Below are positions 5,025 through 40,331 of a DNA stretch of 64,000 nt, one piece after another. The stretch comes from an uncultured Bacilli bacterium (lineage in GTDB: Bacteria; Bacillota_I; Bacilli_A; RF39; UBA660): assembly GCA_934130545.1 (NCBI GenBank), contig CAKOYD010000004.1:16780-80779 (forward strand), in the 5' to 3' direction. Made by a program: the position numbers and the translations under genes. The stretch's first letter is position 1. Every line of letters begins with the position of its first letter. The notes beneath the pieces were generated by a model. That model searched no databases. It was not told the origin of the DNA and saw nothing but the letters and a program-made list of their open reading frames with translations.

Positions 5025-6617
5025 TTAAAAACCATTTTTTTTACTTGTTCCATTTATTTCTAGTTTTATCGTTTCATTCATAAAGTTTAATTTCCATTCA
5101 AAATAATCTTTATGAATAATTATCCTTTCTACAAATTCTTCTATAATTTTATCATCAACACCATTATAGTTAATATCAAGTAATCTTCTAATACTCTTTT
5201 TTGCATTCTCAATTCTAACTTCTAATGGCTCAATTGATTCACATTTCTTTTCTAATTCTATAATTTCTATTTTATACTTCTCTATTCTACTAGATAACTT
5301 CTTTTGAAACATATCATATAAATTTATATCTATTGTTTTATCTAAATATGTATCTATAAGTCTATCAAATTTTTCATTTTCTTTTTCTATAAATTGTTTT
5401 AATTTATCAATTCTTTGTCTTATCTTTATCTCTGGATGAGCATCTATATCTACTCCTTTCATTAATCTTTCAAATAATTGCTTTCTATTATCAGGATTTT
5501 GAGTAAGATTCCTAAATATATATTCAGCCATGTATTGTAATTTCCATTCTTGGACTTCTTTCATGTTGCAACCATCTTTAAATCTACTCTTAAGTCTATT
5601 CTTCTTGTTATAACAAACATAGCAATATGTAGTATCATTTTTATTATTGTGATAAATCTTTCTATTAAAATTTGATCCACATTCACAAACTAATTTTTTA
5701 CTCCATATATTTCTTGGTACACCTGTTGCCTGTCTTTTTCCTACCTTAATAGGTTTAGAGTGACTATCCATTATTTGTTGAACTTTTTTAAAATCTTCTT
5801 TTGCTACAAGTGGTTCATGTCTGCCTTCAACAACTACTTGTTCAACTTCACCATAATTCATTTTGGGTTTTTGTTCTAAGTAATCAGGTATATAAGATTT
5901 TCTATAAACTATTGTACCTGAATAAAATGGATTCCTTAACACTCTGGAAACATATGAAAGACTCCAATTAGTTAATCCCATAGATGTATGAGCTTCCATT
6001 TTGGTTAGTTCATCAGCTACTTTAACTGTTCCTTTACCACTTAAATATTCAGAAAAAATAAATTTAACTATTTCAGCTTGTGCTTCATTAACTACCAAAT
6101 CCTTTCCTACTTTGTTATAACCAAGTATATTTCCTGTTCCATAGAACACTCCATTTTGAAATGATATCATTTGTCCTGCTTTAACTCTTTGAGATGTTTT
6201 CTTACTTTCGTTTTGGGCTAATGTAGCCATAAGAGTAAGTTTTAGTTCTCCATCTTCATCATTAAATGTCCAAATATTATCTTCAATAAAATATACTTCT
6301 ACTCCAATATTTTTTAGTTTTCTAGTTTCTTGCAATGTATCAACTGTATTTCTTGCAAATCTTGATACCTCACGAGTAACTATTAGATCAAATCTTCCTG
6401 TTTTTGCATCCTCCATCATTCTCATAAAGTTTTTTCTTTTCTTTGTAGATGTTCCTGTTATACCTTCATCTATATATCTATCATATAAAATCCAGTTAGG
6501 GTTCTTCTTTAGAATATCATCATAGTATTGAACTTGATTATCTAAAGCAGATAATTGAGTTTCATGTTCTGTTGAAACTCTAGCATATATTGCTACCTTT
6601 CTTTTCATTTCTCTCAC
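5025..6617 (-). CDS. large serine recombinase (resolvase/invertase N-domain + recombinase domain + zinc ribbon)
   Basis: N-terminal VAIYARVSTEHETQ...DLIVTREVSRFARN (catalytic Ser domain). C-terminal Cys cluster CECGSNF...CYVCYNKK. Size 530 aa. Confidence 0.9.
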   Translation of the reverse strand: MREMKRKVAIYARVSTEHETQLSALDNQVQYYDDILKKNPNWILYDRYIDEGITGTSTKKRKNFMRMMEDAKTGRFDLIVTREVSRFARNTVDTLQETRKLKNIGVEVYFIEDNIWTFNDEDGELKLTLMATLAQNESKKTSQRVKAGQMISFQNGVFYGTGNILGYNKVGKDLVVNEAQAEIVKFIFSEYLSGKGTVKVADELTKMEAHTSMGLTNWSLSYVSRVLRNPFYSGTIVYRKSYIPDYLEQKPKMNYGEVEQVVVEGRHEPLVAKEDFKKVQQIMDSHSKPIKVGKRQATGVPRNIWSKKLVCECGSNFNRKIYHNNKNDTTYCYVCYNKKNRLKSRFKDGCNMKEVQEWKLQYMAEYIFRNLTQNPDNRKQLFERLMKGVDIDAHPEIKIRQRIDKLKQFIEKENEKFDRLIDTYLDKTIDINLYDMFQKKLSSRIEKYKIEIIELEKKCESIEPLEVRIENAKKSIRRLLDINYNGVDDKIIEEFVERIIIHKDYFEWKLNFMNETIKLEINGTSKKNGF

Positions 6618-6716: not shown

Positions 6717-7157
6717 TTAATCAAAATCTTCTAAATCAATATTCCATAGACCTAACTTGCCATTAATTTCTTTATCAACATTAATCTTTTTAATATTTTT
6801 CAATTTCCATGCATATCCAGTCCTATATTTTGAACCATATGCAATATTATTCTCGTTAATTATCTTTTTGTTTAAATCATCATCTAATTCTAAACAATCT
6901 TCAATTTCAACTTCTGCTAATATTCTTCTTGAAGGAAATTCTAAATTTATATTTTTAAATTTTTTCATTTCTTCTTTGTCGATTCCAACTCCGGCATGAA
7001 TTAATACTTTTCCACGATAATTTATTTTCCAAGATCTAAACTCATATTTTTTTATACCCTCTGCAACTAATGTAGCCCATGGTTGTTTTAATGTTAATAC
7101 CTTCACTTTTATCACCAATAATATTTTATCATAAAACTTATAATTCTTATCATTCAA
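6717..7157 (-). CDS. ASCH-domain protein
   Basis: LTLKQPWATLVAEGIKKYEFRSW matches the ASCH 'QPWA...G.K..E.R' core. Confidence 0.6.
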   Translation of the reverse strand: MNDKNYKFYDKILLVIKVKVLTLKQPWATLVAEGIKKYEFRSWKINYRGKVLIHAGVGIDKEEMKKFKNINLEFPSRRILAEVEIEDCLELDDDLNKKIINENNIAYGSKYRTGYAWKLKNIKKINVDKEINGKLGLWNIDLEDFD

Positions 7158-7208
7158 ACAATAATATTCAATAAAAATATGATATAATAATTAATTAGGA
7201 GGGATAAG

Positions 7209-7985
7209 ATGCAAAGTGAGCAAGAAATAATTGAAGAATTACTTACAAAATTTACACAAATAGCTGCACAAGGCTGGATTGAAAGTCATAGACAACATAA
7301 TACTGGTATAGGTAAAACTTTTGAAGATTTATTAGAAAAAGTTGAAGATAATTTGGGCGAACCTGATTACAAAGGTATTGAGTTAAAAACTCATAGAAAA
7401 AATAGCAACTCTTTTACAACACTGTTTACTGCTTGTCCAGATGGACCTAATCCTAGTGAAAATACTAGATTAAGAGAAACATATGGTGAAACATATGCTG
7501 ATTCAGGTTTAAAAACTCTTCACACCTCAATTTTTGCAACTAGGAAAACAACATACTTTAACAAATTTAAATTTCAAATGGAAGTAAATTATGAGGATAA
7601 AAAGATTTACCTACTTGTCTTTGATATGAACGAAGAATTAATTGAGAAAATTACATTCTGGACATTTGATTCTTTAAATAAAAAATTAGAAAAGAAATTA
7701 AAAATATTAGCTTTAGTGGATAGTAAAAGCAAAAAGGAAAATGGAAAAGAACTATTTAAATATGACAAAATAACAATTTGCAAATTCAAAAATTTTGATA
7801 AATTTTTGAAAGCCGTAGTTGATGGAAAAATAATGTTAGATATTCGTATCGGTGTTTATAAAAGTGGTCAATATTTTGGTAAAACACATGATCATGGAAC
7901 TGGATTTAGAATTAAAGAATCCAACTTAGAATGCTTATATGATATATTTGAGCTTAGAAGTTTTGAAGAAGAAAAGGAAGATTGA
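7209..7985 (+). CDS. Type IIP restriction endonuclease, MvaI/BcnI family
   Basis: GIGKTFEDLLE...GIELKTHRKNSNSFTTLFTACP and C-terminal GKIMLDIRIG...THDHGTGFRIKESNLECLY align by pattern with BcnI (GQILERQFG...GEFELKGMRN...LTLFHKKP; VLVMDLCID...PHDRGPHLRIPISKLDKLY). Convergent with the MTase gene. Confidence 0.7.
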   Translation: MQSEQEIIEELLTKFTQIAAQGWIESHRQHNTGIGKTFEDLLEKVEDNLGEPDYKGIELKTHRKNSNSFTTLFTACPDGPNPSENTRLRETYGETYADSGLKTLHTSIFATRKTTYFNKFKFQMEVNYEDKKIYLLVFDMNEELIEKITFWTFDSLNKKLEKKLKILALVDSKSKKENGKELFKYDKITICKFKNFDKFLKAVVDGKIMLDIRIGVYKSGQYFGKTHDHGTGFRIKESNLECLYDIFELRSFEEEKED

Positions 7986-36510: not shown

Positions 36511-37425
36511 CTATACTTTTTTTTTCAAAACAAATTGAATATAATCACTACCATCTGTTGACTGAGAAAATTTTAAATAATCTATTCCTATAACGCTTGT
36601 TGAAGTTAAATCAAAAGAAATAGTCCCTGAAGAAGTTTTTGCATTACTCCAAACAATTTTTCTATCTAAAACCACTGAAACGTCATCTTCACTAGAATCA
36701 TTATATACGCTAATTTCTAATCGATAACTTCCTGATTCAAACCCACTAAGCTCAATATAATTCTCTACATCGCCCTCTAATACATTGCTTTTCCAAATTC
36801 CACTTGTACTGTTATATATAAATGGCCATGTTTCATCATTCGATACAGTATACTTACTACTATCAACAATCTCGTATGTTCCAGCTCCAACAACAGTACC
36901 AACACTATCATCTACATTTCTAACAGCAATACCAGTAGAAGTTAAACTAGCAGAAAACTTTTTATTTAAAATATCAGATGAACTAGTATTACTATTTATC
37001 CATAATTTTATAGTAAATGTTCTAGAAGAACCAGGGTTTAATATAACATCTCTAATAATAATATTACTGTCAGTTGATAAAGCAGCAGGATTCTCTCCAT
37101 CCATAGATACTCTAATTAAATCACTACTAATAGTACTATCACTAGAAGGATCTAATATAACATTAAACTTGTATGCTAATGTTCCAATATTAGTTATAGT
37201 AATAGTACTATCACTTTGACTCATGCCATCTGTATCAGTCATTGGATATGCATTATCTAAAATAATACTAGTATTACTATAACTTAACTTTAATGTTCCA
37301 GTACCATAACTTTGTACAATAGAGCTTACTTCATTAGTAAACAAAGCATAAGTTTCTTTACCAATAGACACTAATAACACTAAAACAAGTAGTGATAATA
37401 ATAACTTTTTATTTCTTCCTTCCAT
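36511..37425 (-). CDS. TasA/camelysin-family secreted protein with SipW-cognate-type signal peptide
   Basis: Signal peptide then GKETYALFTNEV (cf. TasA ...AAFND, SipW-cognate class). Ser/Thr-rich beta body ITITNIGTLAYKFNVILD. Confidence 0.5.
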   Translation of the reverse strand: MEGRNKKLLLSLLVLVLLVSIGKETYALFTNEVSSIVQSYGTGTLKLSYSNTSIILDNAYPMTDTDGMSQSDSTITITNIGTLAYKFNVILDPSSDSTISSDLIRVSMDGENPAALSTDSNIIIRDVILNPGSSRTFTIKLWINSNTSSSDILNKKFSASLTSTGIAVRNVDDSVGTVVGAGTYEIVDSSKYTVSNDETWPFIYNSTSGIWKSNVLEGDVENYIELSGFESGSYRLEISVYNDSSEDDVSVVLDRKIVWSNAKTSSGTISFDLTSTSVIGIDYLKFSQSTDGSDYIQFVLKKKV

Positions 37426-37524: not shown

Positions 37525-37971
37525 GTGAATGTAATGAACATTAGTAAATTTGGTAATGACTATTTAATTAAAATATATAAGGAAGAAATAAAAGATATTG
37601 ATATCTATGATATAGATGATATCTATACTTTAATTAAATTAATTATTAAAAAAATAATTAAGAATAATAATATATCCGGTAATTACCAAATAAATATTTA
37701 TACTAATGACATATATGGCATGATAATAGAATTTAATAAAATAAAAGAAAATAGTTATATTGACCTAAAAATCAATATAACTATAGATAGTATCTTTCTC
37801 TATAAAACTAATAATAATTACTTAAATACTAATAACACTATCTATTACTATAAGAATAATTATTATATCTTACCTAAAGATAATAATATAAACTTACTAG
37901 AAGTAGAAGAAGTATTATACGGTAATATTGTTAAAGAAATATTAGCTAAAGGTATTAAAGTAAAATTATAA
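37525..37971 (+). CDS. hypothetical protein, possibly MecA-like adaptor
   Basis: N- and C-terminal patterns (…EVLYGNIVKEILAKGIKV) loosely resemble MecA. Low confidence. Confidence 0.3.
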   Translation: MNVMNISKFGNDYLIKIYKEEIKDIDIYDIDDIYTLIKLIIKKIIKNNNISGNYQINIYTNDIYGMIIEFNKIKENSYIDLKINITIDSIFLYKTNNNYLNTNNTIYYYKNNYYILPKDNNINLLEVEEVLYGNIVKEILAKGIKVKL

Positions 37972-38060
37972 CATCTCACATTTTTCCATACTTTTCAACA
38001 CCAAATTATCACATTTTTCCGACTATTTTTACCACACTTTTTCACATTTTCCCAAAAAAA
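37972..38060. repeat. three direct copies of TCACATTTT(T)CC at ~31-36 bp spacing between convergent genes
   Basis: Copies at 37975, 38011 and ~38046. Confidence 0.5.
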
Positions 38061-38068
38061 CTAAATTT

Positions 38069-38269
38069 CTATAATGATTTATACTTTTGATTTCTAGCAT
38101 TAACACTATTTTTATTTGTATACTCTAGTTTACTTTCTTTAATTAAAGGTCTTAAAATCTTATAAGCAGCATAACTTTTTGAAGAAATATTTAAATATTC
38201 ACGTATTTGATTTGCAGTGCGTGGAATTTTACAATACAACAAAACATCACAAAAAATTTTTTGTTCCAT
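38069..38269 (-). CDS. small winged-helix/HTH DNA-binding protein
   Basis: PRTANQIREYLNISSKSYAAYKILRPLIKESKLEY is a typical wHTH. Confidence 0.45.
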   Translation of the reverse strand: MEQKIFCDVLLYCKIPRTANQIREYLNISSKSYAAYKILRPLIKESKLEYTNKNSVNARNQKYKSL

Positions 38270-38365
38270 TATTTTTTGTGTATCATTTGTGTCGATTTGT
38301 ATATCACTTTGTGTATCACTTGTATCAATTTGTGCATCACTTGTGTCGGTTTGTGTATCACAATT
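38270..38365. repeat. degenerate tandem array (~8 units) of TTTGTGTATCAC / TTGTGTCGR short repeats (iteron/operator-like)
   Basis: tttgtgtatca|tttgtgtcga|tttgtatatcac|tttgtgtatcac|ttgtatcaa|tttgtgcatcac|ttgtgtcgg|tttgtgtatcaca, immediately upstream of the small HTH gene. Confidence 0.6.
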
Positions 38366-38435
38366 AACAAAACTATTTCTAAAAATTACTCTAACAATTA
38401 CAAAAAGCCTCCGTTATAGAGGCTTAACTACAATA

Positions 38436-39116
38436 TTAAATATCAAGAATTAACTTAACATTAGCAGTTATATTTTCATCACTTAACTGTGATTCTAAAT
38501 TTAAACTTTGAATCATTGCAGAATATTCAACACCATTATTTAGTTTTTCTAATAATTCTTTACAATAATATCTCGGAACATAACCCAAATGAAATACTTT
38601 ATCATTTTCTTTAAAAATAATTTTAATTGCATTTTTATCGTTAATATTATTAGGTTCTGGTTCTAAATACAATTTTTTATTAACTCTAAGATAATCTTTA
38701 CACTCATTAATATCCTTACAATGACTTGTTCCAGCTACATCAAACTCAATCTTACTTGAATCAAAAGAAGGAACAAATTCATAATTATCAGTAATAGTTC
38801 TACCTCTTGTTGCTCTTAAAATCTCAAAATCATCAGAATCTTTTTCCAAATTATAACAATTAAGTATTTCTAAATAATCAGGCCTTGTTTCATTAGGTAA
38901 TCGTGTTAAAATATTTGTAAATAAACGTTTACTTTCATATGTTTTTTTTAAATCTTCAAATCCAGGAAAATATTTAAAACCAACTTTTTTAGCATCATCT
39001 AATTCTGGATTAACATAACTAAACTTATATATATTACCATTTCTACATAATACTCCAACCTTATATCTTCTTCTAGAAATTGGCTCTTTCCAAATTAACC
39101 ACAACTCATTTTTCAT
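38436..39116 (-). CDS. HipS-like N-domain fused to HIRAN domain (putative antitoxin/partner of Hip kinase)
   Basis: N-terminus LWLIWKEPISRRRYKVGVL...NGNIYKFSY...LFTNILTRLPNET resembles the HipA N-subdomain-1/HipS. C-terminus NDKNAIKIIFKENDKVFHLGYVPRYYCKELLEKL matches the HIRAN core. Confidence 0.5.
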   Translation of the reverse strand: MKNELWLIWKEPISRRRYKVGVLCRNGNIYKFSYVNPELDDAKKVGFKYFPGFEDLKKTYESKRLFTNILTRLPNETRPDYLEILNCYNLEKDSDDFEILRATRGRTITDNYEFVPSFDSSKIEFDVAGTSHCKDINECKDYLRVNKKLYLEPEPNNINDKNAIKIIFKENDKVFHLGYVPRYYCKELLEKLNNGVEYSAMIQSLNLESQLSDENITANVKLILDI

Positions 39117-39126
39117 CTCTCACACC

Positions 39127-39984
39127 TCATTTAATTATACTTAATAATATGTCTCTCCGCTTAATTAAGTATAGTATTATATAATCTTTGTGTTTATTAG
39201 TCAACAATTCAGCAGGTATTTTATTCACTATTGTTTCTATTATTTCATCTGTTAAACTATTAAGTTTGTCTATCTCAGGAACAACTAGCATAGGAAAATT
39301 ATCATATAAGAATTGTACCAATTCAAAATGTTTATACTTTTCTTTATTATTTTCTTTATATATCAATGTTTTACTTCTTCGAACATATGAATCAAAATCC
39401 TTTATTCCTTCATAATACTTTTGTGCATTACCTAAATTTCTAAATTCTCTTAACAAACTATCCCCATTATCATACAATGGAGATATATATGACTTACCTT
39501 GTTTTTCAATAATTCCCCAATTCTCTTCATGTCTATCCTGCTCTCCAATTAAAGCATCAAAAATCATTATTCTAATAAAACCTTTAAACAATTCTTCATC
39601 TATATCATCTAGTATCATTTTTATATTTGATACAGTATAATAATTTTTTCTTTCACTTAACTCCTTATTTAAATACGCAACTATATCCGTATGTGGTGCT
39701 GTAAATCTATTAGAGAAATAATAATTTAAAACTCCAATTCTCCCAGTATTATCATATGCCAAATCTATTTTTGCGCATTCAAAACCAAGTATCTTTGCAA
39801 TTTCATATGCAATTTTTTCAGAACAAGCTTCACTACAGTCATAATCTTCTCTTTCATACTTAAACATAGCAATTTCATTTTTGTTATTTATTGCAAGCAA
39901 TTTTTTCCTTGAACCACGAACAATAGGAATATCTTGTAAAAACTCAAAATCATTTCCTACCCTTTTAATTTTATATTCTTCCAT
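39127..39984 (-). CDS. HipA-family Ser/Thr kinase, core kinase domain only (HipT-like length)
   Basis: P-loop-like IVRGSRKKLLA (cf. HipA GxQxK). Catalytic motif FDALIGEQDRHEENWGII...SPLYDNGDSL matches HipA FNLLIGNTDDHAKNFSLL...SPAYDLLS. Confidence 0.7.
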   Translation of the reverse strand: MEEYKIKRVGNDFEFLQDIPIVRGSRKKLLAINNKNEIAMFKYEREDYDCSEACSEKIAYEIAKILGFECAKIDLAYDNTGRIGVLNYYFSNRFTAPHTDIVAYLNKELSERKNYYTVSNIKMILDDIDEELFKGFIRIMIFDALIGEQDRHEENWGIIEKQGKSYISPLYDNGDSLLREFRNLGNAQKYYEGIKDFDSYVRRSKTLIYKENNKEKYKHFELVQFLYDNFPMLVVPEIDKLNSLTDEIIETIVNKIPAELLTNKHKDYIILYLIKRRDILLSIIK

Positions 39985-40088
39985 AAAACCACCTTACTAT
40001 ATTAAGTATAGCATAATATTTTATTTTTAAATACATGATTAACAACATTTAATAAAAATTTACAAAAAAGATCCTACCTTAGTAGAAT

Positions 40089-40331
40089 CTATTCAGCACT
40101 TTCATCAACATTAAAATCTTTAAGTTCTCCATTATCTGCTAAAATCTTATTTACTTTATCAGATACTTCAGTTAATTTATTATTACAATCTTTTACTAAT
40201 TCCATAGCCTTAGTATATTTATTAATTGCATCATCTAAATTAACTTCTCCAGACTCTAATTCTTTAACAATACTTTCTAATTCTTTTATTTTATCTTCAA
40301 AACTTATATCTTTATCTTTTTTCTTATCCAT
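40089..40331 (-). CDS. xseB: exodeoxyribonuclease VII small subunit
   Basis: SFEDKIKELESIVKELESGEVNLDDAINKY is the XseB signature. Confidence 0.85.
   Translation of the reverse strand: MDKKKDKDISFEDKIKELESIVKELESGEVNLDDAINKYTKAMELVKDCNNKLTEVSDKVNKILADNGELKDFNVDESAE

Follow-up and report, generated by a model that had tools for sequence, protein, structure and literature searches.

A hipI-hipN kinase and HipS-HIRAN gene pair at a strain-variable site downstream of xseB in an uncultured gut Bacilli bacterium

The DNA analysed in this study, referred to as the window, comprises 64,000 nt of contig CAKOYD010000004.1 (positions 16,780-80,779) from an uncultured Bacilli bacterium (RF39; UBA660), and all coordinates below are those of the window unless otherwise indicated. 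Downstream of xseA and xseB, three open reading frames (ORFs) of 285, 226 and 66 aa were found on the minus strand. The first two, hipI and hipN, encode a kinase and a two-domain partner and are, judging by their architecture and by their PADLOC profiles, almost certainly a hipIN pair, also catalogued as PDC-M03. As terminator-like hairpins follow both xseB and hipN, the pair is considered to be a transcription unit of its own; three such hairpins occur in the region, against 0.2 expected. The parts of the unit, preceded by xseB, are listed below, all on the minus strand.

40089..40331, minus: xseB (Exonuc_VII_S, E 1.3e-18)
40069..40090, minus: intrinsic terminator of xseB, a 9-bp stem followed by a T run, at the upstream edge of the module's unit
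40001..40045, minus: probable promoter region of the hipIN operon, TTGTTA-16-TAAAAT, proposed from its match to the consensus
39127..39984, minus: hipI, 285-aa HipA-superfamily Ser/Thr kinase core, assigned by Pfam, PADLOC and fold
39176..39204, minus: predicted internal sigma-70-like promoter, TTGACT-17-TATAAT, inside the 3' end of hipI and about 60 nt upstream of the hipN start
38436..39116, minus: hipN as a whole, 226 aa, starting 10 nt past the hipI stop codon
38787..39116, minus: N-terminal half of hipN, HipS-like domain (aa 1 to ~110), equivalent of the HipA N-subdomain-1
38436..38765, minus: C-terminal half of hipN, HIRAN domain (aa ~118-226), stop codon included, with PNNxxDKNAIK as in HLTF
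38405..38425, minus: intrinsic terminator after hipN, an 8-bp stem with four GC pairs followed by a T run, at the end of the module

The initial annotation had read the 285-aa product as a HipA-family kinase devoid of the N-terminal subdomain and its partner as a HipS-HIRAN fusion, and both readings were borne out. HipI matches Pfam HipA_C with 44.2 bits (E 2.3e-11), above the curated cut-off of 30.5 bits, and the PADLOC profile PDC-M03A with an E-value of 2.8e-66. It contains IVRGSRKKLLA and FDALIGEQDRHEENWGII, and the core kinase motifs are all present: the Gly-rich loop (aa 24-28, with G24, S25, R26 and K28), the ATP-binding lysine (K42), the catalytic D-x-H-x-x-N (D150-R-H-x-x-N155) and the Mg-binding D-x-G (D172-N-G). 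Among 48 homologues of 57-80% identity, G24, R26, K28, K42, D150-R-H-E-E-N155 and D172-N-G are invariant. The AlphaFold2 model of HipI has a predicted local distance difference test score of 88.6, and Foldseek searches with this model returned CtkA first (template modelling score 0.77, E 3e-12), followed by Legionella HipT (E 6.5e-8) and by HipA from E. coli and Shewanella (E 5e-7). A PDB sequence search ranked these matches in the same order, and D150 and D172 of HipI align with D155 and D179 of CtkA. Because the Gly-rich loop lies only 24 residues from the N terminus, the N-subdomain-1 of HipA is absent. As modelled, HipI has the fold and every catalytic residue of an active HipA-superfamily Ser/Thr kinase without this subdomain. 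CtkA (Helicobacter pylori JHP0940; PDB 3akj/3akk/3akl) is the closest solved structure, at 18% sequence identity and a sequence E-value of 5e-6; we know of no HipS-HIRAN partner of CtkA.

With regard to HipN, the HIRAN domain is apparent from sequence: Pfam HIRAN matches aa 122-208 with 43.9 bits (cut-off 24.7 bits, E 2.1e-11), the DKNAIK motif of HIRAN domains is retained, and the protein matches PDC-M03B (E 2.2e-61), its gene lying 10 nt from the PDC-M03A gene. The HipS-like domain was detected neither by Pfam or NCBIfam nor by phmmer against the PDB, and a fold comparison was required because sequence-only detection had failed; the predicted structure of HipN matches both the HipS and the HIRAN folds. 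PDB matches of HipN to designed Kelch-like 'SAKe' proteins were rejected as repeat artefacts, and NCBIfam profiles added nothing useful for either protein. In these models, HipN supplies the N-subdomain-1 that HipI lacks, in the form of a HipS-fold domain fused to HIRAN.

The HipN family comprises 1125 representatives at 50% clustering (E <= 0.001), 369 of them at E <= 1e-10. Four proteins of 506-530 aa (P0289, P0316, P0345 and P0386; P-numbers designate homologous proteins and L-numbers the homologous loci or contigs that were compared) carry the HipN match in their C-terminal half. In P0289 (520 aa), residues 3-283 align with HipI (E 1e-43) and, after a linker of about 8 residues, residues 292-518 align with HipN (E 3e-49). 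With kinase, HipS and HIRAN joined in one chain in the order of the window genes, it is of the HipL type, and such fusions provide a Rosetta-stone argument for the physical coupling of HipI and HipN.

The hipIN group was defined by Gerdes, Baerentsen & Brodersen (mBio 2021; PMC8262856) as clade XI, in which HipI is the kinase and HipN a putative antitoxin. In that clade, HipI proteins have 279-321 aa and lack N-subdomain-1, HipN consists of a HipS-like part and HIRAN, and no member was listed as analysed experimentally (PMC8262856). The published systems, from Firmicutes, likewise have a short core kinase with a serine beside the Gly-rich loop and a kinase-first bicistronic order with a downstream HipS-like and HIRAN gene; we found no architectural difference from the pair described here, which belongs to uncultured gut Bacilli. 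PDC-M03, a HipA and HIRAN pair (PMC13245101), is among the PADLOC PDC systems, 145 untested candidates collected by 'guilt by embedding' in BREX, DISARM or restriction-modification (RM) loci (bioRxiv 10.1101/2024.01.29.577857). HipA and HIRAN pairs that adjoin diDNase genes in Actinobacteria were noted, as untested, in 2025 (PMC11706625). A full-text literature search, which did not cover all journals, found no experimental characterisation of hipIN or PDC-M03, in agreement with the initial annotation, which had described the architecture as predicted only computationally. As a catalogue entry, the locus is therefore an expected member of a family known from two computational studies. To what is known of hipIN, the present analysis adds the pattern of loss at the population level, the conservation of the internal promoter and confirmation by fold of the HipS-like domain.

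The pair differs from the better-known Hip systems. HipBST of E. coli O127:H6 and Legionella pneumophila (PDB 7ab3, 8ezr, 7vkb) consists of three genes, hipB-hipS-hipT, including the helix-turn-helix (HTH) protein HipB, and its HipS is a stand-alone protein of about 100 aa, whereas the window pair is kinase-first, has no HipB and carries the HipS-like domain fused to HIRAN. An HTH-type HipB partner was not found for the window pair, the sole candidate, the 66-aa ORF, being a gene stump. HipL (Gerdes et al. 2021) has the same three domains in the same order on one polypeptide, which here are divided between two genes 10 nt apart. E. coli K-12 HipBA belongs to the same kinase superfamily and shares the catalytic motifs of HipI; however, HipA, of 440 aa, includes N-subdomain-1 in its own chain, has as its antitoxin the HTH protein HipB, whose gene lies upstream, and involves no HIRAN. 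The comparators for the HIRAN domain are HLTF/Rad5 and Lactobacillus plantarum lp_0118 (PDB 4xzf, 6l8o, 3k2y). In eukaryotes, HIRAN is found on SWI/SNF helicase-ubiquitin ligases at stalled replication forks, whereas in HipN it is attached to a kinase-regulating HipS domain.

The distribution of the two genes was examined in a hipN-anchored census with one genome per species (79 loci) and in a kinase-anchored census of metagenome and viral contigs (83 loci). The taxa of the former are mostly uncultured gut Bacilli, 'Tenericutes' or 'Mycoplasma sp. CAG:877' assemblies, and the remainder are Lachnospiraceae, Saccharibacteria, Niallia, Exiguobacterium and Fervidicella. The gene upstream of hipN in this census was as follows.

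Intact hipI immediately upstream: 48 loci
A different 381-aa HipA-like kinase upstream (L026): 1 locus
Frameshifted or broken hipI: 4 loci
Short hipI remnant only: 4 loci
No hipI at the protein level: 17 loci
Contig end, not evaluable: 5 loci

A kinase was thus present at 49 of 74 evaluable hipN loci, whereas hipN was present at 76 of 77 evaluable kinase loci. An intact hipI-type kinase is missing from 25 of the 74 (4 frameshifted, 4 remnants and 17 with no protein-level trace), and several of the loci without a protein-level trace, namely L016, L044 and L050, still contain debris of the hipI 3' end at the DNA level. In the kinase-anchored census, hipN lies immediately downstream in 76 of the 83 loci, at a spacing of -19 to +49 nt in 73 of these 76; six contigs end at most 120 nt past the kinase, and there is a single exception, L153. 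The kinase is accompanied by hipN almost without exception, but roughly one hipN gene in three has lost its kinase, in events independent of one another. At L153 (2650-3433 of that contig), an IS3-like transposase ORF directly follows an intact hipI, and the contig ends before hipN could reappear. In-frame stops in the kinase were considered as UGA read as Trp (code 4), an explanation that was rejected since L011, L052 and L073 are frameshifted with TAA, TAG and TGA stops. At L026 (5844-6989), the longer kinase that precedes hipN has the motifs DRHFNN...DNG, and this pairing implies that HipN is able to pair with more than one kinase type.

Kinase loss can be followed within the species of the window. 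Two contigs, L003 and L009, lack window 40001..39155, so that only the last 9 codons of hipI are left and both its start codon and its ribosome-binding site are gone; they keep the upstream promoter region and a near-identical hipN. The nonsynonymous and synonymous divergences (dN and dS) of hipN are 0.002 and 0.016, against a dS of 0.09 for xseA in the same pair; all such values are simple Nei-Gojobori estimates. As the last hipI codons are retained, the state of L003 and L009 is a deletion and not ancestral. The allele lies at 6313-6400 of the contigs, and in both of them the AAA_14 gene also lacks its first 37 codons.

Orphan hipN genes persist. The orphans of L049, L050 and L053, which are syntenic, have pairwise dS values of 0.39-0.55 and dN/dS ratios of 0.13-0.18, and these low ratios indicate that orphan hipN is maintained. 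The three loci (~7001-7690), from three species, share the order ABC transporter, hipN, dehydrogenase-like gene, and in L053 the last 34 hipI codons still precede the orphan. For the window hipN, the dN/dS relative to its relatives is ~0.07-0.12.

The initial annotation had also drawn attention to near-identical boxes close to the starts of both genes. The 11-mer CTATACTTAAT indeed occurs exactly twice, at 40001-40011 (box 1) and at 39164-39174 (box 2), and each copy comes after a -10-like hexamer; besides the consensus match listed above, the operon promoter region contains a TATTAT/TATACT -10-like stretch that overlaps box 1 (CTATACTTAAT, 40001-40011). As a repeat the boxes are within chance (0.29 copies expected; 6 of 100 window shuffles reach at least 2) and were rejected as a significant repeat, and box 2, which falls on codons 271-273 that vary between species, is not conserved among homologous loci. 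They were equally rejected as clean recombination sites: the deletion in L003 and L009 ends exactly at box 1, but its other end lies 10 nt beyond box 2, for which reason a simple box-to-box crossover fails.

What is conserved is the promoter-like sequence directly upstream of box 2. TTGACT-17-TATAAT (39204..39176) is the top promoter-like site of the region, with 11 of 12 matching positions, and 30 of 33 homologous loci have a site with at least 10 of 12 at this position (mean 10.6, versus 8.2 elsewhere in the gene). Three codons within it show a marked synonymous preference.

Leu261 as TTG: 23 of 28 loci, against an overall TTG share of 18% in these genes
Ile269 as ATA: 29 of 30 loci, against an overall ATA share of 53%
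Thr262 as ACT: 20 of 27 loci, against an overall ACT share of 44%

Elsewhere, synonymous divergence between such loci approaches saturation (hipN dS 1.4-1.7). From this codon-level bias we infer selection for an internal promoter that probably transcribes hipN independently of hipI. Of the four short kinase remnants, three (L024, L053 and L058) keep the internal-promoter segment, its score remaining at 10 of 12 or above in L053 and L058 only; L048, L003 and L009 keep the operon promoter region instead.

The genomic surroundings of the family are heterogeneous. Among the 150 ORFs that most closely flank 44 intact loci, housekeeping genes predominate, and the few related to defence or mobility are integrases (four), AAA_21/PbeA-like (three), ResIII (three), PDC-S01 (two), Fic (two) and AAA_14 (two). 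No recurrent third gene was found beside hipIN among these nearest flanking ORFs, and no Rfam family reached threshold anywhere in the window, so that no RNA component was identified. In L171, an IMG/VR contig, a hipIN pair whose kinase is 56% identical lies between the endolysin and integrase genes of a temperate phage (4461-9472). A CI-like repressor and an anti-repressor are encoded beyond it, and this is the usual slot of prophage accessory or defence genes.

Taken as a whole, the pair is best read by analogy with the solved Hip systems, in a picture to which we assign a probability of roughly 0.6: the HipS-like domain would restrain the kinase, HIRAN would sense DNA ends, and the released kinase would arrest growth. 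In HipBST, HipS inhibits HipT by inserting a conserved tryptophan at the active site (PMC10627512; PMC9325769), and HipN's HipS-like domain may likewise bind HipI in trans and hold it inactive. Transcription of hipN from both the operon promoter and the conserved promoter in the hipI 3' end would bring HipN into excess, as the codon-level conservation suggests. HIRAN, which in HLTF binds 3' DNA ends, would be the sensor of the trigger, probably the DNA ends of phages or intermediates of replication; a possible role of HIRAN in sensing the ends of DNA from invading phages has been proposed previously (PMC8262856). Its engagement would relieve the inhibition, whereupon HipI may phosphorylate an essential translation factor, as HipA does with GltX and HipT with TrpS, resulting in growth arrest or abortive infection. 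The lopsided gene loss (76 of 77 against 49 of 74) and the natural kinase deletions lend indirect support to a toxin-antitoxin relation, and the alternative cargo at the window site and the pair in a prophage point to a setting of genetic conflict. A switch of this kind is favoured over a labile-antitoxin scheme because covalent fusions exist. The narrower proposal, that the HipS-HIRAN protein is a DNA-end-sensing switch gating a growth-arresting kinase and that hipIN is an abortive-infection system, is tentative, and we hold it to be possible but not probable. If it is true, the promoter inside the toxin gene would be a device that keeps the switch in excess, and orphan HipN could represent immunity against incoming phages or mobile elements that bear hipI (anti-addiction) or have a kinase-independent role at DNA ends.

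Several points weigh against this interpretation. What is said of target, toxicity, neutralisation and the function of HIRAN is drawn from analogy throughout, and an obligate activating partner would explain equally well why the kinase never stands alone. The neighbours in 44 genomes are mostly housekeeping genes, with few of defence or mobile elements, and do not establish an enrichment in defence islands. Purifying selection on the three orphans suggests that HipN has some activity in the absence of the kinase, which would not be expected of a pure antitoxin, and the single-chain fusions argue against the classical labile-antitoxin scheme. The two censuses drew on different collections with motif-seeded retrieval, and some frameshifts in metagenome-assembled genomes may be assembly errors.

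The loss pattern and the neighbourhood would also be expected of a plain selfish addiction toxin-antitoxin pair with no role in phage defence, in which HipN is only the antidote and HIRAN is the DNA-binding part that autorepresses the operon in place of HipB. The kinase never occurs without hipN and has been lost repeatedly, the neighbours are mainly housekeeping genes, and there is no HTH partner here although HipBA and HipBST both have HipB. We nevertheless consider this explanation doubtful. The HIRAN domains studied so far bind DNA 3' ends and not specific operators (PMC8262856), and DKNAIK is kept in HipN; moreover, covalent kinase-HipS-HIRAN fusions are incompatible with differential antitoxin decay. 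A homologue occupies a prophage accessory slot, and PDC-M03 was picked up through its embedding in BREX, DISARM or RM systems.

The fusions and the constant presence of hipN beside the kinase lend themselves to another explanation, in which HipN is an obligate, kinase-completing subunit that recruits HipI to DNA ends and the pair is a DNA-damage or replication signalling kinase and not a toxin. N-subdomain-1 does complete HipA, and the purifying selection on orphan hipN suggests that it has a role of its own. However, HipBST from E. coli and from Legionella, the two split systems with solved structures, both have HipS as the inhibitor (PMC10627512; PMC9325769), and the repeated, independent loss of the kinase only is what a costly toxin predicts and is unexpected for an ordinary signalling pair, which makes this explanation improbable.

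Bacterial persistence was first modelled on the Hip kinases. From the split HipBST systems it emerged that the N-subdomain is able to inhibit in trans, and hipIN and HipL add a DNA-end-binding HIRAN to it. A HIRAN domain on the inhibitor suggests a direct link from the sensing of nucleic-acid ends to the shutdown of translation. The locus is a compact and intact example in an abundant human-gut lineage, and the empty sites, kinase-deleted alleles, orphan hipN genes and single-chain fusions are natural controls that render the toxin-versus-regulator and sensor questions testable.

The site itself was examined in long human-gut metagenome contigs of the same species, retrieved through the exact XseB protein of the window, whose flanks are 91-100% identical to the window. 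Its content varies between strains as follows.

hipI-hipN-stump: L001 (100% identical) and 7 similar places
Empty: L005, whose flanks are ~22 bp apart
Last 50 nt of the AlbA_2 stump only: L007
Complete SLFN_AlbA_2/HATPase_c_4 gene of 558-642 aa, alone or together with an AAA_14/DUF4143 gene: L002, L008 and L010
Same DNA as the AlbA_2 alleles, gene apparently disrupted: L004 and L006
hipN without hipI: L003 and L009

The insertion suspected from the sequence of the window alone was thereby confirmed by the spacing in related contigs, the empty site of L005 (~22 bp) having a similar counterpart in L007. The DNA specific to hipIN corresponds to window ~40048..38366: homology with the alternative alleles ends at 40048-40064, and the right edge of the variable region lies at ~37964-37972. 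The best explanation appears to be that hipIN entered a site, variable between strains, immediately downstream of xseB and there took the place of the greater part of an AlbA_2/HATPase_c_4 gene. Among contigs with this XseB, hipIN is the most frequent allele (8 of the 20 places represented).

Gene debris around the pair (the AlbA_2 stump and the deleted AAA_14 gene) and kinase-deleted alleles in the same species could be taken to mean that the window module is a decaying relic with no present function. This is highly improbable: both ORFs are intact with every catalytic residue present, the predicted promoters and terminators are intact, hipIN is the most frequent allele (8 of 20 places), and the hipN dN/dS of ~0.07-0.12 speaks against decay.

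The features between hipN and the right flank are the following.

38069..38365, minus: 3' remnant of an SLFN_AlbA_2/HATPase_c_4 gene, not part of hipIN
38275-38361, minus: in-frame DTQ tandem-repeat linker of the AlbA_2 stump
38069-38269, minus: 66-aa ORF, the winged-helix tail of the AlbA_2 stump
37976..38054, strand unassigned: spacer with three 13-nt repeats at 33-nt spacing
37525..37971, plus: convergent 148-aa ORF of the right flank

The 66-aa ORF had been described as a separately transcribed small winged-helix gene, which proved incorrect, as it belongs to the 3' remnant of the AlbA_2/HATPase_c_4 gene. In a tblastn search, aa 481-586 of the L002 AlbA_2 protein match window 38365..38072 with 52% identity (E 5.8e-24). 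The full-length AlbA_2 protein ends, after a repetitive linker, in ...KLEYTNKNSINARNQKYKSL and the 66-aa ORF in ...KLEYTNKNSVNARNQKYKSL; their C-termini, ...KLEYTNKNS[IV]NARNQKYKSL, are identical. The frame of the ORF is open upstream through the tandem repeat at 38275-38361, which reads DTQTDTSDAQIDTSDTQSDIQIDTNDTQ, and the ORF itself has a weak Pfam match to Fic-like_C, the winged-helix tail of such proteins. By tblastn, the 79 hipN loci of other genomes gave no match to it. A role as a HipB-like third component or regulator was accordingly rejected, the sequence being the last ~100 codons of the AlbA_2/HATPase_c_4 gene, linker repeat included. The tandem repeat was likewise rejected as a set of iterons or operators, since it is an in-frame coding DTQ repeat that matches the linker of the full-length gene. 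The full-length alleles, of 558, 586 and 642 aa, differ in length by the number of linker repeats.

The spacer at 37976-38054 is a leftover of the region upstream of the AAA_14/DUF4143 gene, which is present in other strains and deleted here. Its 13-nt unit, TCACATTTTTCCA on the plus strand, is repeated three times exactly 33 nt apart, and the same array lies upstream of AAA_14/DUF4143 elsewhere; it may be an operator or promoter array. For the 148-aa ORF of the right flank, the label 'mecA-like' given in the initial annotation could not be retained, as no Pfam, NCBIfam or PDB-sequence match was obtained. This gene, of 145 or 148 aa and very AT-rich (GC ~18%), is kept in every strain examined. 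One gene past the hot spot, 36511-37425 on the minus strand encodes a 304-aa protein with an N-terminal signal-like segment, and in other strains of the same species this slot encodes products of 182-807 aa, which makes it a second hypervariable gene.

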